From a virus: a DNA stretch of 64,000 nt. Numbering within the stretch: the first letter of the stretch is position 1; each line of letters opens with the position of its first letter. A model generated the notes under the pieces. That model had not been told where the DNA came from. It saw only the letters and a list, made by a program, of their open reading frames with translations, and searched no databases. Positions 42,941 to 60,554 of this stretch are shown here, one piece after another. Both the position numbers and the translations under genes were made by a program. Where the stretch lies: the IMG/VR virus record IMGVR_UViG_3300045988_142974, positions 1 to 64,000 of that record; one strand, given 5' to 3'.

Positions 42941-44860
42941 TTAAAATCTTGTCACTTTTTTTGGCGCTCTTATTGAGAAGAGCTTTGTTATGTCGGATGG
43001 GGATTGGGTGTGCTTTTTCTGACGTACAGTATCTTGACTTCTAAGTTCAAATAAACAGTGTCCCATTAAAGCCATGCAGTAGCTTCTATCATCGTGCAAA
43101 ATATTTTCAAAACCAGGAGCAAGATCGTATCTTACTTTTTCATTTGATGATTTATACTTGTACATATGGGTTAATTCTTCTTTCATAGCATCAAGCTGCT
43201 TTAATCCCAATTCCTCTTCAAAAGATAATTTATAATTCTTTTCAATAACTTCCCCATTTTCTTCTTCAAGCATAGTTAAGCTGCCATGATAATCATATTC
43301 TGCTGTAAAACTAATCAAATCCTGATCAATCATTTCACATAACTGTGAATACATAATTGCTTTATATTTAGAAGGCTCACGCATACGAATTACATCTATA
43401 GCATCTGGATACCTTTTTACATATGGAATAGCATAATCATAGCTTGCATCAATTAATCCATGATGTTCATAATCTTTTTCACCTTTATGATTTTTCTCAT
43501 AAAAATTATCAAAAAGTAAATCACATATTTGCGTAGCTCCACCACCAGAACCAGCATCAATATATATACCATGAATGTTTTTATAATCAGGAACACCATA
43601 TCCGTTATATCTAACCATAATATCTTGGAGCATTGTCACCTGTTCAGGAGTAGTAAGTGGTTTTTGTGTTTCTTTATCAATCAGGTTGATACCATTTACA
43701 ACATCTAATAGCCAACCACGTTTATCATCTCTATGTAATTTACCAACAAGCACAAAGCTGTTATCTCTTTTTTTGGCGGGATCGAAGCAGATGACCATAA
43801 GAGAATTATCATCATTAACAAGCATTGGCGGTCTGACAACACTATTTCTAAGAACTTGCGATTTCTTAACTGCAATATCATCACCAAGGTCTGAATCAAA
43901 TTTATTCATATACTCACGGGTAGCTTTAGTTGGATTCATCTTCATTTCTGAATCAATCTTTGCTTGAGTAAGTAGTGGAACAGGATATACTTTTCCATTA
44001 TAAGTAGCATGAAGAATTACTTCACAATCTATATCTGCACAAAAATAATTCTTATCACCTGCCATAGAGTGCATCGCAGCTTCTTTATATCTTTTATAGA
44101 AAACATCATCCATCGAACCTGCTGAACTTGCACATACAACTTGATTTGGGAAATTTGGTGGAAGTAATGTTACATCAACATCACCACCAAGAGCGAAGTC
44201 ACTGTTCTGAGTGACGAATGGAAGAGTAGCAGCGAACATATCTTCAGATACATATGATGCCTCATCATAGAAATTAAGTCGGCTTCTTCGACCACGAGAT
44301 CCATCAAAATTTGAGTTGACCGTAGCCAAACTCGATCCTGAATAAAGTTTAAAGGAGTAAGATGCTGGATCGTGCCGAAAGCCCTCGCTGTTTGAACTTT
44401 TTACAAGTTCGTTTAGAAATACATCTGTCAGACCAGTAAAAGAAGCGATTTCTTTTTTAGCAATAGACTCGATCTTCTTCATCATACCTATACTTTGCGA
44501 ACCTGTGCTTGATAAAATGTAGCCTTCAAATTTGGGCAGTAACATTGTTTTAGCCATCAGGAATGGGCTACCCAATGTAGTTTTACCAGCATTACGACTC
44601 ATACACCAAACAACATTTGGAGTAATCCATGACATCATAAATACATATTTCTGATAATCAAGAAATTCAATGCCGAAAAATCTTTCGCAGAATTTTACCG
44701 GGTTTCTGCGCCCCCATTGAATTATTTCAGAGAATTTTTTCAAACCCTCTAATTTTAATTCAGACATATCATAATAAGTAGGTTTTTTGAAAAAAGTAAA
44801 ATTTTTTGGAGTAAATTCATTTATAGAATCACCCATCAGGACAATTTTATCATCAGCCAT
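42941..44860 (-). CDS. terL: terminase large subunit
   Basis: Walker A MSRNAGKTT, Walker B LNFYDEA, C-terminal RNaseH-like nuclease region (VICFDPA...), 639 aa. Confidence 0.85.
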   Translation of the reverse strand: MADDKIVLMGDSINEFTPKNFTFFKKPTYYDMSELKLEGLKKFSEIIQWGRRNPVKFCERFFGIEFLDYQKYVFMMSWITPNVVWCMSRNAGKTTLGSPFLMAKTMLLPKFEGYILSSTGSQSIGMMKKIESIAKKEIASFTGLTDVFLNELVKSSNSEGFRHDPASYSFKLYSGSSLATVNSNFDGSRGRRSRLNFYDEASYVSEDMFAATLPFVTQNSDFALGGDVDVTLLPPNFPNQVVCASSAGSMDDVFYKRYKEAAMHSMAGDKNYFCADIDCEVILHATYNGKVYPVPLLTQAKIDSEMKMNPTKATREYMNKFDSDLGDDIAVKKSQVLRNSVVRPPMLVNDDNSLMVICFDPAKKRDNSFVLVGKLHRDDKRGWLLDVVNGINLIDKETQKPLTTPEQVTMLQDIMVRYNGYGVPDYKNIHGIYIDAGSGGGATQICDLLFDNFYEKNHKGEKDYEHHGLIDASYDYAIPYVKRYPDAIDVIRMREPSKYKAIMYSQLCEMIDQDLISFTAEYDYHGSLTMLEEENGEVIEKNYKLSFEEELGLKQLDAMKEELTHMYKYKSSNEKVRYDLAPGFENILHDDRSYCMALMGHCLFELRSQDTVRQKKHTQSPSDITKLFSIRAPKKVTRF

Positions 44861-46076
44861 CTTCGATTACTTGCCCTTTCTCATCTATAAGACCTTTTTC
44901 AAATAAGAAATCTTTAAGGTCTTTATTTTCCTTTTTCAACAACCTACTAAATTCAACAGCATTATCTCTTTCTTTTTGAAGATTAAATAATAATCCTTTC
45001 TGATGAATAACTTCTTTTTCCCAATCGTTTTCATCAGGATTTAACTGCTTTAATTGATTCTGATGATTTCTTGTCATAATATCTTCGATTGCCATATTTG
45101 TTTCATAATCGAATGTATTTACCTCAGAACCATCTAAATCCATTTCTTGTAATTCTTTTATGATACCAGTAAGAGTACCAGCACCTTTGCTTTTTCTGTT
45201 GTTATTGTTTTCAGATATACCGTTGTCCTTTGCTAATGCAAGGGCAGAGGAAAGCATATCTTTTTTTGTCTGTGTGAGAGATTTTACAGTAGCGATCATT
45301 TCTGGATGAGTTTGTAGTTGTTTTGTATATTGAGCCAATGTGTCATTTATATGTTTTACATCTTTAAATGACTGTACTATTTCAATTACAGCTTCCAATT
45401 TAAAACCATCATCTTTTAATGAATCATCAAAATAATTTACCAACTTACTATATAAAAGAGGTTTGTCTTCTTCCTCTTCGTATATAAAAGGATCATAACC
45501 AAGCATTCTAAGAACACTTCGTTTATTTTTAATATACATATCTTCAACATCTTCAGATACTTGCTGTGGTTTCTTTTCAAAATTTTCGGCAACATCAGTT
45601 GTCACATCATTGACATTTTGTTCACCAAAATCAGATTGGTCAAACGTCATTCCAAAATATTGAGGTAAACTCTGTAAACATGTAATCATTTGACTATATC
45701 CAGTGCCACGTTTCTTACCACTTACCTCATTTGTGATAGCACTACAAGAGTTATCATATAAGTCTTCTAAAAATGGTAAATCAGCTTTTTTCATTGCCTC
45801 AATCACAGTTTCTCTTGTTTCATGTGTTTCTTTAGTTTTTTCATCATATCCTGTTCCTATTTTATAAAGACATTCTTTACAAACAGGAATAAGACCTGAT
45901 GCAGTTTTTGGACTCTTATAAAATTTATCACGCCCTTTGAATTTTCCACATTCATGACAATAAGCACCATTTTTTATTTTTTGATACTCATTGACCAATT
46001 TTTTATAAGCAGAGCGACATTGTGTAACAGTCATCTTACTTATATCTTCGATTTCATATTCTTTGACTCTTGGCAC
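44853..46076 (-). CDS. hypothetical protein with Zn-ribbon, possibly small terminase / DNA-recognition subunit
   Basis: Overlaps the terL start by 8 nt; CHECGKF...CKEC motif. Confidence 0.3.
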   Translation of the reverse strand: MPRVKEYEIEDISKMTVTQCRSAYKKLVNEYQKIKNGAYCHECGKFKGRDKFYKSPKTASGLIPVCKECLYKIGTGYDEKTKETHETRETVIEAMKKADLPFLEDLYDNSCSAITNEVSGKKRGTGYSQMITCLQSLPQYFGMTFDQSDFGEQNVNDVTTDVAENFEKKPQQVSEDVEDMYIKNKRSVLRMLGYDPFIYEEEEDKPLLYSKLVNYFDDSLKDDGFKLEAVIEIVQSFKDVKHINDTLAQYTKQLQTHPEMIATVKSLTQTKKDMLSSALALAKDNGISENNNNRKSKGAGTLTGIIKELQEMDLDGSEVNTFDYETNMAIEDIMTRNHQNQLKQLNPDENDWEKEVIHQKGLLFNLQKERDNAVEFSRLLKKENKDLKDFLFEKGLIDEKGQVIEDG

Positions 46077-46123
46077 AAAGTCACTTCCTTTCCTTTTTAT
46101 TCCAATAAAATAGAAGAGTAAGT

Positions 46124-47404
46124 TTAAGCAACCGACTCTTCCTTAAAATATTTCCATATAAAATTATGACTCGTGGCAGTTCTTCCTTTACAATTATTAA
46201 TAATTGTGCCTCTATCATAACCTAATTCATTATGTATATCAGTTATTGAATTCCATATTCTTATAACATTCATATCTAAATCATATTGAATAATTTTTTT
46301 CTTAATATGAGACATTTGTTTTTCTCTTTTTAATAAACCTTCTTTTTCTCCGTTTTCATACAAATATGCTTTGTTTTTATACTTAAATATAAAATTATGT
46401 ATAGATCTTCTTTCACCAATACAACATAGATATATATCATATGTTCTAAGATTTGATATTAATGATTCATCATAAATACTTTTAGAGGAACGAATATAAT
46501 TACCATCTGAATCAAACACATCAACAGGTTCACAATATATATTTGCTTTACTTTTATATTTAGGCAATATTTCATTTAACTTATCAACATCTTTCTCGTA
46601 TAACCATATACTATTTTCGTAATAATCTTTTTGAAAATCACAACACTTGAAAATGGTATTGTTTCTATAATTTGATGCATTTAATTCATCAAATGTCCAT
46701 ATTTTCAGTAAATCTCCTTTAAAATTATATTGATGATATTTTGCATATTTGTGATAAACGTCAGAATTTAATGAATAAGAAGATGTTTCTAAATGTTTAT
46801 AGTCTTCTTCATAAAACCATAAACTATCATAAGCAAAATGACTTTCTGAATTTAGAGCAGTATATATTCCTGCAATAGAAAGATTTAAAGTTTTACCTGC
46901 CTTATTCTTGGAATCCCAATTTACAATTGAATTGTCTAACAAACTAATTTGAACAAGCGGTCTTTTTAAAGCATTGTGTGCCTGAGATAATTTTTCTCTT
47001 GCTTTAGGATTCTTCATTCTCTCTTTTTGGAGCTTGCTCATTTTTTCAATATTTTCTTCTGTATGAGTATATCCCAAACCACCAGTTCCACCTTCGTTCA
47101 TATTGTATCCGTTTTTAAATGAATCATAGTATCTTACCCAATAGCGTTCTCTTTGGTATGCTGTATCATCATTTTTGCATTTTTCTACAATTTCAAATAT
47201 AAAATTTTCTTCACCATATTTGTTCCATGCTCTTTGAAGATGTTTATTGTGATGAACACCTTTATTTAAATCTTTTCTATGTTCATCCCATCTAACATAA
47301 ATATTATCAGATTTTCCAATATATTTTTTATTATTCAATTTGTTGGTTATTGAATAAACTCCACATATTATCTCGTAATCTTTAGGTGTAAATCTTTTAC
47401 TCAT
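46124..47404 (-). CDS. free-standing GIY-YIG homing endonuclease (426 aa) with NUMOD3/IENR1-like repeats
   Basis: GVYSITNKLNNKKYIGKSDNIYVRWDEHR...NKYGEENF; LGYTHTEENIEKMSK repeats. Confidence 0.8.
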   Translation of the reverse strand: MSKRFTPKDYEIICGVYSITNKLNNKKYIGKSDNIYVRWDEHRKDLNKGVHHNKHLQRAWNKYGEENFIFEIVEKCKNDDTAYQRERYWVRYYDSFKNGYNMNEGGTGGLGYTHTEENIEKMSKLQKERMKNPKAREKLSQAHNALKRPLVQISLLDNSIVNWDSKNKAGKTLNLSIAGIYTALNSESHFAYDSLWFYEEDYKHLETSSYSLNSDVYHKYAKYHQYNFKGDLLKIWTFDELNASNYRNNTIFKCCDFQKDYYENSIWLYEKDVDKLNEILPKYKSKANIYCEPVDVFDSDGNYIRSSKSIYDESLISNLRTYDIYLCCIGERRSIHNFIFKYKNKAYLYENGEKEGLLKREKQMSHIKKKIIQYDLDMNVIRIWNSITDIHNELGYDRGTIINNCKGRTATSHNFIWKYFKEESVA

Positions 47405-48724: not shown

Positions 48725-48796
48725 GCATACCTTAAAGGAATTGAACCCCTTACATAACGTTTTGGAGACGTTTGTTCTACCATTAAACTAAAGGTG
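48725..48796 (-). tRNA. tRNA-Trp (anticodon CCA), one C-A mismatch in the acceptor stem
   Basis: Hand fold: TAGTTTAATGGTAGAAC D arm, AACGT-CUCCAAA-ACGTT anticodon arm, GGTTCAATTCC T arm. Confidence 0.6.
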
Positions 48797-48862
48797 CATA
48801 AATAGTAGGAGAGTAGTAGCAACCACTCTCCTTAAAAATGAGCATAAAAATAACAGCTATGA

Positions 48863-49654: not shown

Positions 49655-49772
49655 GAAAGAATCCTCCTTTATTTTTTTTGATATAATAAAAAGAAGCCAC
49701 TTCATACGAAATGACTTCTCAAAAAAATTTCAATATTAAATTTCCAATGAAAGTGCAATTTACTTCACTTAG

Positions 49773-49840
49773 CACACCCACTGCGCATCGAACACAGGTT
49801 AGAAGTTTTGGAGACTTCATTCTTGCCAAAAGATAGGTGC
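49773..49840 (-). tRNA. tRNA-Trp-like sequence (anticodon CCA) with irregular D arm; possibly degenerate
   Basis: GAAGT-CUCCAAA-ACTTC anticodon arm, CTGTG-TTCGATG-CGCAG T arm, acceptor GCACCTA/TGGGTGT with G-U pairs; the D arm does not fold canonically. Confidence 0.35.
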
Positions 49841-50291: not shown

Positions 50292-50364
50292 TGACCTGTA
50301 TGGAATTTGAACCCCTGTTTACCGCCGTGAAATGGCGGTGTCCTTGCCTTTAGACCACAGAGCC
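50292..50364 (-). tRNA. tRNA-Glu-like (anticodon UUC) with mismatched acceptor and T stems
   Basis: Close to remembered Bacillus tRNA-Glu (GGTCTAAAGGC..GGACACCGCC-AUUUCAC-GGCGG), but acceptor GGCTCTG / ACAGGTC pairs only if one base bulges. Confidence 0.45.
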
Positions 50365-52110: not shown

Positions 52111-53145
52111 TTAGACGAAAGCTTCATCGGCATCTTCTGTGTCCTCACGGATGACATACATCTGAGTTGTTTCGGAAGATTCGTGTCCCAAAAGTTTCTG
52201 TGCAGTTTCCAATGCACGATGGTCATAACATACCAGATTGGTTGCACGACTTCTCCGGAAATTATGTGGAGTCGTTCTCCTGCCAACAATTTCAGAAAAT
52301 TCATTTATGCACCAATCATTGAATGCACTATATCCAATCTGTCGTACCTTTGAACCATCTTTAGTTTTTACGACAAACATATAAGGGCAATCATCATCGC
52401 CACGCACTTCAAGCCATTTCTTTAATGCGTCCATTACATCTTGTCCAAACTGCAATTTTCTAACCTTACCAACGGCACTACGTCCCTTGCAACGAATCTC
52501 ATGTGTTTTGTAAGAAACAGATTCTACTTCTTGTTCTTTACCATCTTCATCGACAATTGTTACAATTTTCCTCTTAGGCTCATAATTAACAACCTCTTTG
52601 AGCAACTGTAAACTCTCTGCATGTCTGCATCCTGTAGAATATGTAAACTTTACATATGCTAATTTTTGCCATTCTTCACGTTCAGCCAATACAGAACATA
52701 AGTTATCCATTTCATCAGGCGTTAATGGTTCTTTTGCAAAAACCTTACCTGTTTTTGGCACTTGCATCTCAGCAGTTACATAATTACGGAACGTAGGATA
52801 GTCCTCATCGTAGAAATTCTCGATGAATTTATTCAATGCACTGACAGAAGACTTTTTAAATTTAATTGCAGCTTCAGATAGCCCACGATTAGCAAGAAAA
52901 TTCATATAGCGAAGAAATTCTTTCTTTCTAATTTCTATGCAGTTTTTGTTATTTAGGTTATTTTTAACCCATACGAAAAATATCTTTAATGCAGACCTAT
53001 AAGCATGTAAACTATGCGGTGAAAGATGAGTCTGATTACTGAGGTAATCTTCAACCATATTTCTATTAAACTCATTAACCTCTGCCCATTCCTCATCTGT
53101 AACTGGATCTAATTTATCTGCTATTTTACCATTCAATAATCTCAC
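52111..53145 (-). CDS. tyrosine recombinase / integrase (XerC/D-like)
   Basis: N-terminal SAM-like domain; C-terminal TGCRHAESL, HNFRRSRATNLV, LLGHESSETTQMY (R...H..R...Y pattern). Confidence 0.8.
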   Translation of the reverse strand: MRLLNGKIADKLDPVTDEEWAEVNEFNRNMVEDYLSNQTHLSPHSLHAYRSALKIFFVWVKNNLNNKNCIEIRKKEFLRYMNFLANRGLSEAAIKFKKSSVSALNKFIENFYDEDYPTFRNYVTAEMQVPKTGKVFAKEPLTPDEMDNLCSVLAEREEWQKLAYVKFTYSTGCRHAESLQLLKEVVNYEPKRKIVTIVDEDGKEQEVESVSYKTHEIRCKGRSAVGKVRKLQFGQDVMDALKKWLEVRGDDDCPYMFVVKTKDGSKVRQIGYSAFNDWCINEFSEIVGRRTTPHNFRRSRATNLVCYDHRALETAQKLLGHESSETTQMYVIREDTEDADEAFV

Positions 53146-53198: not shown

Positions 53199-54080
53199 TC
53201 AAATATTTATCCATTCTTCTTCTGTATATTTTTGTATTTCTGATACTTTTCTTGGTAAATTATATTTATCACACCATTTTCGTATTGTATTGTCACTAAC
53301 ATTATACATATCGCCAATTTGAGTAAACGAGGTAGATCTTATCAATTCTTTTAAATTATCTCGTGAAATTATATTATATAATTTTTCTATTCTCTTTTTG
53401 TTATAACAAGATTCACACATTGTAGATGTTGAATTCATTAAATTTGTTTTACAACATGGACAAATAATTTTAACTCTATTAATATATTTTGTTTTTGCAT
53501 TTTCCCTCTTATGCTTGTGTGAGCAAGAAACACATAGTCCACTTTTGCTATGACTGCTAATTTTTATACCACATTCGCTACATACTAATGTTGGCTCTTT
53601 TGCTCTTTTGGAATTATATACACCAAAATTATCTGTCATACTATGACAATTGGGACATAATATTTGCAAGTTTGATAATTCGTTATTATCATGATTGCCA
53701 TCAATATGATGCAATTGTAATTTAACAGGTTTTCCTAGCCATTCGGATATACCACATAATTCGCATTTACTTTCTTTGTAACCGAATTCAATCAATTTAT
53801 TTCTTAATTTATGACTATTTGTTTTTGTATTTCTATGTAATTTCGATTCAATATTATATTCTGAACATAAAGACATTTTTGCCATTTGTTGTTTATATAA
53901 TTTTCTGTTTTCTTCAAATTTAGAAGTATCTAATTTATATTCTTTTATGATTCTTTTTAACGTATTTGTACTACTTGATGAATTTATACCTGCGACTCTA
54001 AGAATTTCTGTATATGTATTTCTTGAATCTAGCAAGCTTTGTAATTGTTCAGGTGAAAAATTATATAATTTACTCGCCAT
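53199..54080 (-). CDS. HNH homing-type endonuclease with extra Cys4 clusters and a C-terminal HTH-like region
   Basis: CELCG...LQLHHIDGNHDNNELSNLQILCPNCHS. Confidence 0.8.
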   Translation of the reverse strand: MASKLYNFSPEQLQSLLDSRNTYTEILRVAGINSSSSTNTLKRIIKEYKLDTSKFEENRKLYKQQMAKMSLCSEYNIESKLHRNTKTNSHKLRNKLIEFGYKESKCELCGISEWLGKPVKLQLHHIDGNHDNNELSNLQILCPNCHSMTDNFGVYNSKRAKEPTLVCSECGIKISSHSKSGLCVSCSHKHKRENAKTKYINRVKIICPCCKTNLMNSTSTMCESCYNKKRIEKLYNIISRDNLKELIRSTSFTQIGDMYNVSDNTIRKWCDKYNLPRKVSEIQKYTEEEWINI

Positions 54081-58234: not shown

Positions 58235-58399
58235 CTACTTGACATATTTATCTTCAATGTAACGCTTTCCACCACAAGTTTTATAATATCCAATATGTTC
58301 ACCATTCCGATCTACATATCCTCGTCTTGTGTTTCTAATTACACCTTCAGATAATAATTTTTCAATTTCATTTTTTGAAATGTACTTAATAATTTTCAC
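58235..58399 (-). CDS. small ORF (54 aa, GTG start: MKIIKYISKNEIEKLLSEGVIRNTRRGYVDRNGEHIGYYKTCGGKRYIEDKYVK)
   Basis: Hand translated; below the track size cut-off; fills the gap before tRNA-Pro. Confidence 0.4.
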   Translation of the reverse strand: MKIIKYISKNEIEKLLSEGVIRNTRRGYVDRNGEHIGYYKTCGGKRYIEDKYVK

Positions 58400-58438
58400 T
58401 TCTTTCTTGATTTATTTCCTGCATAAGCAGGATAGTAG

Positions 58439-58513
58439 TTGGAAATGTAGGATTTGAACCCACGACCTCCTGAACCCAAATCAGGCGTTCTAACCAAACT
58501 GAACTAATTCCCA
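58439..58513 (-). tRNA. tRNA-Pro (anticodon UGG)
   Basis: Acceptor TGGGAAT/ATTTCCA, GTTC..GAAC D stem, CCTGA-UUUGGGU-TCAGG anticodon arm, GTGGG-TTCAAAT-CCTAC T arm. Confidence 0.8.
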
Positions 58514-59410
58514 AAATAAAAAATCCCATACCGAAGTATGAGATTCTTACCTAATATGAGCTGAGATATTTGACTCAATACACTAACATCTACTGTGGTT
58601 GGACACAGTTTATCACACAAGCGATTAACTTGTAGTTAGCAACAACACCGATTTTGACATAATCGGCAAACTCTTACCACAAAGTATTATAGATTTTCTT
58701 TCTGCACATTCTTCCTTGCGAGATTCATAGGTTGCAGCCTATTAGAATTGTACGTACTTGTACTTTCTCATATAGTACCTTGCGAGTGCTATATGTCACC
58801 ATATTACAGATGAATAAGTTGTTTGCCTCTTTGCGGTCATACACACTTTTGCTTGTTCTTTAATCAGTTTACCTTTTAATATAAATATGCATTATATTTG
58901 ATTTATTCTTTCAAGAGTATGTTGTAATTAATATTTGCATAAAAATGAACGATGAGGTGTACATTTGATCATCTGTACCTTTTGAGTACAGCCCAATCAT
59001 CACCATTCTGTTCGTCTTGCTATTGACTTACTTCGTTATTCTGTTCCTTGCTTTCGCATTAAGAAACGTTGCAACAATCAATATTAGCACTTTTTCTTGC
59101 GGAAATCGCACCAATAAGACAGTAATCATACCCATGTTTCCATGTTAATACAGCGCATTTCTCATTACGCCTACCAAATCAACTTATCTAAGAATTATCA
59201 AGCTTATCAGAGCTATCAAATCTACAAAGATTCATAAATAGTCATTAGCAGTTGCCCTCTGACCTTAGACTTGGTATAGATTATCTGTGTTTTCCGTCAA
59301 ACTGCCATACGCAGTCGCAGTGTCTTATGCAAACTAAAGACATTCCTGCTTTATCCTTATTGCTAAGTTTATTTAACGACACGAAACCTGCCGCCTACAA
59401 GTAGGAGAGT
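58514..59410 (-). ncRNA. ~0.9 kb region without ORFs, bracketed by tRNA-Pro and tRNA-Met: candidate large structured ncRNA (strand assumed from the flanking tRNAs and tetraloop motifs)
   Basis: No track ORF of 60 aa or more begins between 58130 and 59679. On the minus strand there are three CGCAAG (GNRA) motifs and one GCGAAAGC hairpin motif. Confidence 0.35.
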
Positions 59411-59482
59411 TGCAGAAACAGGACTCGAACCTGCATACTCTTGGTTATGAGCCAAGTGAGCTTCCATTGCTCGTCATTCCGC
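59411..59482 (-). tRNA. tRNA-Met/Ile2-type (anticodon CAU)
   Basis: Acceptor GCGGAA/TTCTGC, CTTGG-CUCAUAA-CCAAG anticodon arm, GCAGG-TTCGAGT-CCTGT T arm. Confidence 0.7.
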
Positions 59483-59678
59483 TATAATATTTAAGAATTA
59501 TCAGTGACCATACTACAAAAACTGTAGTACAGTCACCGATTATAGAAGGTAAGGTACAATGAATATGTACTTGATGTTTACATTTTATTATTCTCTGTTT
59601 TATTAGTCAAGAAAAGCTGATTTCATTGTTTTCCATATGTGATATATAACACCATAAAAACAGCTGTAAATCCTTATT

Positions 59679-60554
59679 TTACAAGGAAAACTCCGATTTT
59701 CTATTTGTGGTTATACGCTTTTTATTATATTTTTTATATCTTTTCAAGTCATTTTGTTTTCTACAATCATCGCAGTATAATCGTTTATTAGCTGTTTTTT
59801 CAATAATTCCACCACATCGTTTACAACGAGAATATTTATTATTGTGTCCACGCTTAACAGAGTAATAGTCTTTTTGGTAGTTTTGAAAATACGCATTTAA
59901 CGATCTATTGATGTACTTAACATAAAAATTATCTTCAGTAATAAAATCATAGTTATTTACAATCTGAGTCTTATCTTCATATTCTCCAATCAGTTTGCAA
60001 TTATCAAAACATTTTCTCAAAAATCCTTCAACAACCTTTTTATATTCATTCCAAGATAATATCATTTTCTCCTTTTGAAAACGTTGTTTGAGTTTTTCGG
60101 CTTCATCAATTACATCGTCAATAATACCAGTGGTTGTATTTGCATCCATCTCAGTTCCAGATAACCAATTGAAGTACATTAGCTTTGGTTTCTTTAATAA
60201 ATCCATGTACTCCTTATTGAGAATTACTTCTTTATCAAAATATCTTGTATAAATATTATTGATTTTCTGTCTGATAATAGCGCACCAATTTTCATCTTTA
60301 GTCATTGACTTGTAATATCTGTATTCAATTCCTGACCATGTATCAAATATTCGTCCAAGTTCTGTATCAAGTAAATCCTTTCTGACTTTAAAATGAATTG
60401 TTTTAATATATGTACGCCTTTTATTATCAGAAGCCCATATTGAGGAGCAGAACGAGTTGAATATCTCGTCCTTTACCTTATTATTCTCTGCTTCTTTGTA
60501 ATCTTCTATAATTTCATATAGAAATGTTTCATTACAGTCGTAAATATGTATCAC
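59679..60554 (-). CDS. hypothetical protein with C-terminal Zn-ribbon and basic tail, overlapping the end of the RNA polymerase gene
   Basis: CKRCGG...CDDC motif; 23-nt overlap with the upstream gene. Confidence 0.45.
   Translation of the reverse strand: MIHIYDCNETFLYEIIEDYKEAENNKVKDEIFNSFCSSIWASDNKRRTYIKTIHFKVRKDLLDTELGRIFDTWSGIEYRYYKSMTKDENWCAIIRQKINNIYTRYFDKEVILNKEYMDLLKKPKLMYFNWLSGTEMDANTTTGIIDDVIDEAEKLKQRFQKEKMILSWNEYKKVVEGFLRKCFDNCKLIGEYEDKTQIVNNYDFITEDNFYVKYINRSLNAYFQNYQKDYYSVKRGHNNKYSRCKRCGGIIEKTANKRLYCDDCRKQNDLKRYKKYNKKRITTNRKSEFSL

Follow-up and report, generated by a model that had tools for sequence, protein, structure and literature searches.

What occupies the 895 nucleotides (nt) between a tRNA-Met and a tRNA-Pro gene at positions 58514 to 59408 (minus strand) of IMG/VR virus record IMGVR_UViG_3300045988_142974? 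An initial annotation of the 64,000-nt stretch analyzed here (hereafter, the window) had proposed that this region specifies, on the strand of the two tRNAs, a large structured noncoding RNA of the GOLLD class, the ROOL class, or a new class of large phage RNA. GOLLD RNAs are among the very few natural RNAs known to build protein-free cages larger than the ribosome. The best overall explanation of the locus, in which we place high confidence, is that positions 59408 to 58519 (minus strand) represent a full-length GOLLD RNA gene of a gut Clostridia phage; membership of the inter-tRNA RNA in the GOLLD family, taken by itself, is regarded as nearly certain. The two bracketing tRNA genes, on which ARAGORN and Rfam agree, are as follows:

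59409 to 59483, minus strand: tRNA-Met (CAU), predicted by ARAGORN, Rfam tRNA score of 45.2 bits, directly 5′ of the GOLLD RNA.
58438 to 58513, minus strand: tRNA-Pro (UGG), predicted by ARAGORN, Rfam tRNA score of 65.6 bits, directly 3′ of the GOLLD unit.

The compositional features that had singled out the region were all located. No open reading frame (ORF) of at least 60 amino acids (aa) starts between positions 58355 and 59678, the longest ORFs inside the inter-tRNA region being 31 to 50 aa, and the region is indeed less AT-rich than its surroundings, with a GC fraction of 0.33 to 0.40 over positions 58450 to 59500 versus 0.25 to 0.30 in the flanks. The motif CGCAAG is present three times on the minus strand (58715 to 58720, 58779 to 58784, and 59096 to 59101), with the first two copies each lying inside CUCGCAAGG; as both strands of the 64 kb together hold only 13 copies, three within approximately 390 nt of one strand amount to a roughly 30-fold local enrichment. 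The single GCGAAAGC motif, at 59050 to 59057 (minus strand), is the sole copy in the window. We concur with the caveat of the initial annotation that the absence of ORFs is in itself weak evidence, the decisive observations being a covariance-model match and compensatory base changes.

Such a match was obtained when positions 58300 to 59750 were scanned with Rfam models on both strands, using permissive filters and reporting E values of up to 10. The GOLLD model (RF02032) matched positions 59008 to 58558 (minus strand) over its entire length (model positions 1 to 416 of 416) with a score of 83 bits, an E value of 1.3e-21, and a bias term of 21.5 bits. The hallmark sequences of GOLLD, namely, the L14 loop UCAAAAG, AAGCAAAAGU, CUCGCAAGG (L20), the GAUA junction, and UCUCAGC (L27), are found at the corresponding model positions in the window and are conserved throughout the clade described below. 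The 3′ domain of the RNA is homologous to the GOLLD covariance model. In the same scan, neither the ROOL model nor that of any other large-RNA family gave a match on either strand. A ROOL RNA would be expected in just this setting, next to tRNAs in a phage of Firmicutes, but the lack of any ROOL match at E values of up to 10, as opposed to 1e-21 for GOLLD, refutes this reading, the probability of which we regard as vanishingly small; of the classes originally put forward, GOLLD thus stood and ROOL did not.

Homologues were sought by several routes. A blastn search of the 1.1-kb region against 50,697 GenBank phage records matched the tRNAs only and gave no match to the RNA itself; homologues were recovered when IMG/VR was searched through a 291-aa protein encoded just upstream. 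This search yielded 40 related loci (29 on contigs of 80 to 218 kb and the rest on shorter ones), 22 of which contain a homologous RNA of 800 to 920 nt. The RNA lies between two tRNAs in the window, as it does in 21 of these 22 carriers, only the 3′ tRNA being detected in the remaining one (L028); the upstream tRNA of the relatives is Met or Asn, and the downstream tRNA is Pro, Thr, Lys, or others. Other related loci hold a lone tRNA or nothing at the site of the RNA, and the GOLLD element is therefore considered accessory; an Rfam scan of these GOLLD-free relatives for other large RNAs, performed at the gathering score, reported tRNAs only.

A second set of homologues (loci L041 to L162) was retrieved using a clade-specific DNA pattern which includes AGCAAAAGUGUGU, the invariance of this sequence being unbiased only for the 23 sequences found via the neighboring protein. 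The pattern was detected in at least 119 further viral contigs and in three bacterial assemblies, i.e., those of the isolate Eubacterium segne BX4, a Ruminococcus sp. metagenome-assembled genome (MAG), and a Lachnospira sp. MAG, which agrees with the Firmicutes phage context anticipated in the initial annotation. The Eubacterium segne and Ruminococcus contigs each harbor one full-length copy, both of which also score within the range of 82 to 99 bits with the GOLLD model, while the Lachnospira contig carries a partial copy. A profile search over all loci recovered at least 131 full-length copies (at least 90 unique sequences), mostly on IMG/VR phage contigs of 80 to 180 kb, with total RNA lengths of 802 to 912 nt. 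From these, 51 representatives of no more than 98% mutual identity were selected, ranging down to 69% identity.

Several observations on the surroundings of these copies may be recorded here. In Eubacterium segne BX4 (L041; NZ_JACOOZ010000003.1), a 340-kb contig of this cultured isolate carries the GOLLD match (347 to 1157, 97.5 bits) flanked by two tRNAs, with homologues of the 66-aa protein and the exonuclease of the window located downstream of the match, and this locus is probably a related prophage. The 1,825-nt Ruminococcus sp. contig (L042; JAZQFT010000033.1) presents, on its minus strand, a skipping-rope RNA (RF02924), tRNA-Asn, GOLLD, tRNA-Ala, and the start of a 23S rRNA gene, in that order, which represents either a GOLLD gene beside an rRNA operon or a chimeric contig. 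The tRNA at the 3′ flank varies among close relatives (L010, L015, L021, L028, L002, L012, and L040), being Pro, Thr, Lys, or undetermined. Anticodon switching was considered as the source of this variation and rejected, since the Pro, Thr, and Lys tRNAs have unrelated acceptor stems, from which it follows that whole tRNA cassettes have been swapped at this flank of the RNA. The apparent tRNA-Phe(AAA) in L002 resembles a mutated Lys(UUU) tRNA, and a 101-nt match to the tRNA model in L009 (10310 to 10410) and in L022, L024, and L027 (9591 to 9691) may be a tRNA that carries an insertion or has a long variable arm.

The RNA specified by the window is a two-domain structured RNA of approximately 850 to 890 nt. 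Its organization is most readily described with reference to env-38, a marine metagenome GOLLD of 833 nt for which a 14-mer nanocage was determined by cryo-electron microscopy (PDB 9MEE; Kretsch et al. 2025, PMC12286853). The following parts were delineated:

59009 to 59408, minus strand: GOLLD 5′ domain, 400 nt, assigned by RNAalifold, covariation, and collinearity with env-38.
58947 to 59008, minus strand: P13/P14, the first hairpin of the 3′ domain, Rfam model positions 1 to 62, with loop L14 (CUCAAAAGG).
58855 to 58946, minus strand: variable AU-rich linker J13/15, 92 nt, unpaired in the Rfam model and enlarged in the window by a 39-nt insertion.
58558 to 58854, minus strand: GOLLD 3′ core, Rfam model positions of approximately 117 to 416, with a clade identity of 86% and a length of 296 to 304 nt.
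58519 to 58548, minus strand: 3′ terminator-like hairpin found by a terminator scan, 13 pairs with a UUCG loop, followed by a U-rich tract and ending 5 nt before tRNA-Pro.

The 5′ domain comprises a P1-like hairpin, AAAUAAA, a GNRA hairpin (GCAA, approximately 59367 to 59356), GAUAAAG, a GCAG...CUGC stem, GAGGGCAAC, AGAUAAGUUGA, a CCGCAAG hairpin (59096 to 59101), and the GCGAAAGC hairpin (59050 to 59057). It also contains optional modules: a hairpin of 51 to 59 nt at approximately 59243 to 59185 (minus strand) is present in 11 of the 51 representatives, the window included, and a hairpin of about 15 nt after P1 is absent from 13 of the 51, again including the window. In the 3′ domain, the P13/P14 element measures 62 nt in all 51 representatives, with 90% identity, and its L14 loop reads UCAAAAG in 49 of them. 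The 3′ core begins with AAGCAAAAGU at 58854 to 58845, which forms the end of J13/15, and encompasses a long-range helix (58837 to 58829 with 58684 to 58676), the loops L20 (CUCGCAAGG, 58786 to 58778), L21a (UGCA, 58736 to 58733), and L21b (CUCGCAAGG, 58722 to 58714), and GAUAA, and ends with the L27 hairpin with AUCUCAGC. The terminator-like stem is kept with compensatory changes in the relatives (columns 924 to 933 with 939 to 948 of the alignment A1 introduced below); in those flanked by tRNA-Thr, the hairpin at the 3′ end of the RNA is retained and the U-run is absent.

The linker spans 54 to 117 nt across the clade, with an A+U content of 83% and an identity of 64%, and corresponds to the disordered linker inside the env-38 cage. 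Within it, a conserved block, ACAUACU(C/U)UUG, is located at 58928 to 58917 (minus strand). This block (ACAUACUUUUG) is complementary to both the L14 loop and the J13/15 flank: it can pair with AGUGUGU just 3′ of AAGCAAAAGU (58848 to 58842) and, via CUUUUGA, with the L14 UCAAAAG of most clade members. As the partners in these pairings are invariant, the pairings offer no covariation to test.

Compensatory change was assessed in an alignment of 23 homologous sequences (A1), with the displacement of the 3′ partners serving as a slid control. For the 3′ domain, the structure under test was taken from the Rfam consensus and was thus not derived from the sequences of A1. The window accommodates 92 of the 97 Rfam pairs, 86 of them as standard and 6 as nonstandard pairs. 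Across A1, 92.8% of cells pair (32 to 46% when slid), and compensatory double changes are seen in 34 of the 92 pairs (2 to 6 when slid), values reached by none of 500 shuffles. Twelve of the 14 mapped Rfam helices pair in 83 to 100% of cells and display compensatory changes; P13/P14 (helices 1 and 2) pairs in 98.5% and 91.2% of cells, respectively, with seven pairs showing such changes. RNAalifold applied to A1 predicts 204 pairs, 90 of which have compensatory changes, distributed over both halves of the RNA. For the 5′ domain in the same 23 sequences, 97.4% of cells are paired over 90 RNAalifold pairs (32 to 43% when slid), with double changes in 46 pairs (4 to 11 when slid), and for the 51 representatives, 99.1% of cells are paired over 186 consensus pairs (34 to 44% when slid), 102 of which carry double changes (11 to 20 when slid). 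The 5′-domain and 51-sequence structures were derived from the same sequences on which they were tested and these values are hence flattering, yet the gap to the slid controls is still very large. The conserved homologues with compensatory changes that had been called for at the outset were, therefore, found in abundance.

These data also bear on the simplest alternative, according to which the region is a nonfunctional spacer, a decayed tRNA array, or a stretch of small protein-coding ORFs. AT-rich DNA is often ORF free by chance, several ORFs of 31 to 50 aa do exist in the region, and the element is missing from some related phages. However, the double changes and near-complete pairing among the 51 representatives, the conservation of helix lengths while loops vary, and the lack of any tRNA-like element inside the region according to ARAGORN and Rfam render this explanation exceedingly improbable.

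The distribution of conservation points to GOLLD in its own right, as mean identity within the clade is 90% for P13/P14, 86% for the 3′ core, 75% (pairwise) for the 5′ domain, and 64% for the linker, a profile that agrees with the published GOLLD hallmark, in which the 3′ domain is conserved, the 5′ domain less so, and the linker variable. An all-against-all search of the 51 sequences for additional Watson-Crick covariation (pseudoknots and kissing loops) returned mostly phylogenetic background, with only positions 58840/58839 (minus strand) standing out. At this pair of positions, which switch jointly, 35 sequences have AU and 14 have GC, each a self-complementary dinucleotide. Signals of this kind were used by Kretsch et al. 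2025 (PMC12286853) to infer symmetric inter-subunit contacts; the switch could equally be one inherited change.

Beyond the reach of the Rfam model, the 5′ domain was compared with that of env-38. For this purpose, the env-38 sequence was read by machine from a PDF supplement, which provided 816 of its 833 nt (approximately 17 nt missing), and was numbered by a best-fit offset that reproduced 129 of 140 published residue identities, such that the mapping of individual residues is approximate. Eleven motif anchors share their order, and approximately their spacing, between the two RNAs:

AAAUAAA: env-38 position 21, window RNA position 35.
GAUAAAG: env-38 39, window RNA 54.
CUGCG: env-38 69, window RNA 89.
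UUGA: env-38 97, window RNA 109.
GAGGGNAAC: env-38 136, window RNA 150.
AGAUNAGUUGA: env-38 182, window RNA 220.
GAAA hairpin: env-38 302, window RNA 352.
UCAAAAG: env-38 440, window RNA 424.
AAGNAAAAGUGU: env-38 534, window RNA 555.
CUCNCAAGG: env-38 603, window RNA 623.
UCUCAGC: env-38 808, window RNA 843.

A GUGG/GCAG...CUGC stem also takes its place in this common order, and the first four hairpins adopt the same predicted fold in both RNAs. Based on the order of motifs and folds, the 5′ domain is read as collinear with that of env-38. The AAAUAAA and GAUAAAG motifs of env-38 contain the tertiary-contact adenosines A22, A23, A26, A44, and A45 (PMC12286853); in the 23-sequence alignment, the AUAAAG of GAUAAAG is present in every sequence, and AAAUAAA is strictly invariant at four positions only. 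For the conserved GAAA loop L11a, the probable equivalent in the window RNA is the GCGAAAGC hairpin.

A number of results weigh against the assignment to GOLLD. At Rfam gathering thresholds, only tRNAs were reported for the region and no GOLLD match was returned, the gathering score of RF02032 being 150 bits as against 83 bits in the window; default Rfam annotation consequently misses this GOLLD. In the hands of the same tool, the known phage GOLLDs of DSS3P8, phiCbK, PG07, and PegLeg attain 150.7 to 216.4 bits, in comparison with 82 to 99 bits for the eight clade members tested, marking the gut clade as an outlier. Helices 6 and 9 are weak, with 59% and 65% of cells paired, respectively, RNAalifold favoring for helix 9 a register shifted by a few nucleotides. 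An nhmmer search of env-38 with a profile of the 51-sequence clade yielded no match exceeding those of shuffled controls, and the link to env-38 is accordingly visible only through the covariance model and the order of motifs and folds. Similarly, a covariance model (R1) covering the initial 135 nt of the clade RNA gave no real match at the GOLLD loci of DSS3P8, phiCbK, PG07, and PegLeg (best E value of 0.7). Owing to the failure of both searches, homology of the 5′ domain is argued solely from its collinearity with env-38; the failure of R1 fits the known variability of the GOLLD 5′ domain.

Do these results indicate a large phage RNA class unrelated to GOLLD, its match arising from small shared motifs, such as GNRA loops and A-rich junctions, in AT-rich sequence? 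The subthreshold score, the 21.5-bit bias term, and the negative nhmmer result would accord with such a class. The match nevertheless extends with an E value of 1e-21 across the complete model, the great majority of the model pairs are placed and standard, 12 of 14 helices are independently backed by compensatory changes, and the motif order is collinear along more than 800 nt, all of which strongly disfavors this alternative and leaves it with only a slim chance. The Rfam gathering score is, moreover, an operational annotation cutoff and not a structural feature, the published GOLLD census having applied a threshold of E < 1e-5 (PMC12286853 Methods), and in a 61-kb search, five relatives matched GOLLD end to end (82.5 to 99 bits; E values of 1e-20 to 1e-25). 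We conclude that the gut clade is a coherent, divergent GOLLD branch that is missed at the gathering score.

With regard to a possible cage comparable to that of env-38, the conservation of the contact loops was examined. In env-38, L20 and L21b contact neighboring subunits (PMC12286853), and A447 and A448, the first two adenosines of the L14 loop, make the inter-subunit A-minor contact B6 (PMC12286853 Suppl. Table 2). The CUCGCAAGG copy at 58778 to 58786 aligns with L20 of env-38 and that at 58714 to 58722 aligns with L21b. Further counterparts of the env-38 bridges are the GC-containing loops L21a UGCA and L21b CGCAA (B8 and B9) and the GAUAA junction (B10). For bridge B7, a contact originally predicted from covariation, alignment to the Rfam consensus indicates, with approximate numbering, that U617-C618 of the env-38 L20 pair with A547 and G546, while the corresponding dinucleotide of the window is GC both in L20 and in the J13/15 sequence AAGCAAAAGU, so that both pairs are kept with changes on both sides. 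Judged from the aligned sequences, the GC/GC combination of L20 and J13/15 versus UC/GA reads as a compensatory difference.

The following mechanism is proposed. Transcription from an upstream promoter would yield the GOLLD RNA together with tRNA-Met. RNase Z cleavage after tRNA-Met, which in the window has no encoded CCA, would set the 5′ end of the RNA, and the terminator-like hairpin or, upon read-through, RNase P at tRNA-Pro would set its 3′ end. The 5′ and 3′ domains are expected to fold independently, after which copies would self-assemble without protein into a closed dihedral cage, its subunits touching through the adenosines of L14, the GC/GC kissing pair between L20 and J13/15, and the loops L21a and L21b, both of which contain GC, with the AU-rich linker pointing into the cage. 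By analogy with env-38 (14-mer) and the Streptococcus agalactiae GOLLD (12-mer), 12 to 14 copies would be expected. Assembly of the window RNA into a cage is, by this analogy, considered probable, with a confidence clearly below that attached to its family membership.

The principal alternative is a GOLLD homologue that fails to assemble into the closed 14-mer of env-38, having instead another stoichiometry, an open form, an association with protein or the ribosome, or a role as a scaffold for pre-tRNA processing. Peripheral helices are known to set stoichiometry, the 3′ domain alone forming a decamer, the 700-nt S. agalactiae RNA a dodecamer, and env-38 a tetradecamer (PMC12990946), and the clade gains and loses 5′ modules (the 51- to 59-nt hairpin in 11 of 51 and the post-P1 hairpin missing from 13 of 51). 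In env-38, the L14 adenosines are received at the base of the L21b hairpin, a segment whose sequence differs here, and the low Rfam score points in the same direction. On the other hand, the env-38 inter-subunit contact loops (L14, L20/J13/15, L21a, L21b, and GAUAA) are all present and conserved, L21a and L21b occurring together as in env-38, and the 5′ domain is collinear with its counterpart. We therefore rate this alternative as unlikely, albeit the most serious of those considered, and retain the closed cage of 12 to 14 copies as the preferred model.

The transcriptional part of the proposal draws on two further features:

59500 to 59540, minus strand: leader hairpin with a perfect 18-bp stem, 16 nt upstream of tRNA-Met, RNAfold energy of -25.6 kcal/mol.
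59582 to 59610, minus strand: sigma-70-like promoter candidate TTGACT-17-TAAAAT, located upstream of the tRNA-Met/GOLLD unit by a consensus scan (10 of 12 matches).

A long hairpin of different sequence is found at the leader position in six relatives (L001, L017, L025, L005, L029, and L021), and the leader hairpin may act either as a site of RNase III-type processing or as an attenuator separating the tRNA/GOLLD unit from the upstream mRNA. Within the tRNA-Met subgroup, the -10 region of the promoter candidate is kept; the -35 hexamer varies (TTGGCT or TTAACT), which makes this a weak candidate, and the number of promoter-like sites in the region does not exceed the shuffled expectation. The 291-aa ORF is followed, immediately past its stop codon, by a block of approximately 70 nt (59610 to 59678, minus strand) that lies beside the -35 hexamer of the promoter candidate and is almost invariant in ten relatives; this block could represent a regulatory site or promoter peculiar to the phage. 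The U-rich terminator that separates the RNA from tRNA-Pro speaks against an obligatory cotranscription with the latter and, like the variable -35 hexamer, counts against the scheme outlined above.

As regards function, GOLLD expression rises in phage lytic growth (literature cited in PMC12286853), and published ideas on its role include the encapsulation or storage of tRNAs and interaction with the ribosome (PMC12286853, PMC12990946). Our best guess, offered tentatively, is a role tied to the tRNA/translation program in lytic growth. A yet more speculative possibility is that the clade represents a distinct and abundant gut-phage GOLLD subfamily in which gain and loss of 5′ modules retunes the subunit number and the linker block ACAUACUUUUG acts as a tether or assembly switch.

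The genomic context of the element is that of a tailed phage. The window encodes a portal protein, a large terminase, a tape measure protein, an endolysin, and an exonuclease, along with HNH and GIY-YIG homing endonucleases, and contains eight tRNAs according to ARAGORN; nearly all of its ORFs of at least 120 aa lie on the minus strand. Its portal protein shares 24 to 28% identity with portals of large Bacillus, Brevibacillus, and Lactococcus siphoviruses. The window is part of a tailed-phage genome, and the carrier of the GOLLD gene is a tailed phage of gut Clostridia with a genome of roughly 150 kb. Genes resembling those of homing endonucleases (GIY-YIG/HNH, endonuclease VII-like, and HNH) are clustered at 44853 to 47404 and 53199 to 54080 (minus strand), adjoining the large terminase gene and near the tRNA region, and a tyrosine-recombinase-like gene is located at 52111 to 53145. 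Two tRNA-Trp(CCA) genes were predicted by ARAGORN about 1 kb apart (48725 to 48797 and 49772 to 49840, minus strand), the second of which, at 69 nt, falls below the Rfam tRNA gathering score, and tRNA-Glu (50292 to 50363) is borderline at 29.1 bits.

What this study adds is a large, divergent clade of GOLLD RNAs from metagenomic phages of approximately 80 to 180 kb, with at least 131 full-length copies. As the clade scores 82 to 99 bits and goes unreported at the Rfam gathering score, GOLLD is probably undercounted in gut viromes. The natural variants, which differ in whole 5′ modules and in linker length, provide ready-made tests of the control of cage stoichiometry by peripheral helices, and the Eubacterium segne BX4 copy offers a cultured host as a handle; should the subfamily reading be true, the function of GOLLD cages would become directly testable.

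It remains to set the window RNA beside the systems already described. Published GOLLDs occur in phages and prophages next to tRNAs (PMC12286853), and env-38, likewise located downstream of tRNA-Met (PMC12286853), shares with the window RNA its position directly after this tRNA, the division into two domains, an AU-rich internal linker, and the presence of both L21a and L21b. The two RNAs are of similar size (833 nt for env-38), although a crude alignment gives only about 45% identity, and env-38 is of marine origin whereas the window derives from a phage of gut Clostridia. Specific to the gut clade are a small additional hairpin that separates P1 from the tRNA, a longer linker (92 nt in the window versus approximately 42 nt) with one conserved block, and the terminator-like 3′ hairpin. 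The P2 loop is GCAA, GCGA, or GUGA in the clade in contrast to GAAA in env-38, and only part of the distal half of the window 5′ domain, which is about 60 nt shorter, can be aligned.

Mycobacterium phage PegLeg, Vibrio phage PG07, Caulobacter phage phiCbK, and Roseobacter phage DSS3P8 match the full 3′-domain model, as the window does, and their GOLLDs similarly lie between or beside phage tRNA genes, with the order tRNA-Asn, GOLLD, tRNA-Gln in PegLeg and with tRNA-Met upstream in DSS3P8. In phiCbK, a tRNA is situated inside the linker, unlike in the window RNA. In PegLeg (L166), the hypothetical protein PEGLEG_94 is annotated at 785 to 928, between tRNA-Asn and the 3′-domain match (947 to 1360), and is probably a spurious ORF call in the GOLLD 5′ domain.

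The S. agalactiae GOLLD, a 700-nt dodecamer (PDB 9L0R; reviewed in PMC12990946), resembles the window RNA in its Firmicutes host and in a 3′ domain with L14, L20, and L21 contacts. It does not contain P9, P11a to P11c, or P21b (PMC12990946), whereas the window RNA possesses a counterpart of L21b and an L11a-like GAAA hairpin; on this comparison, made by way of the review description, the window RNA looks more like env-38 than like the S. agalactiae RNA. ROOL (Rfam), which forms nanocages of 6 to 8 subunits, is likewise a large ornate RNA of phages and prophages near tRNA islands and builds RNA-only cages, but its sequence and fold are unrelated to those of the window RNA. The understanding of what GOLLD is remains unchanged by the RNA described here, which is a new, divergent member of this known class.

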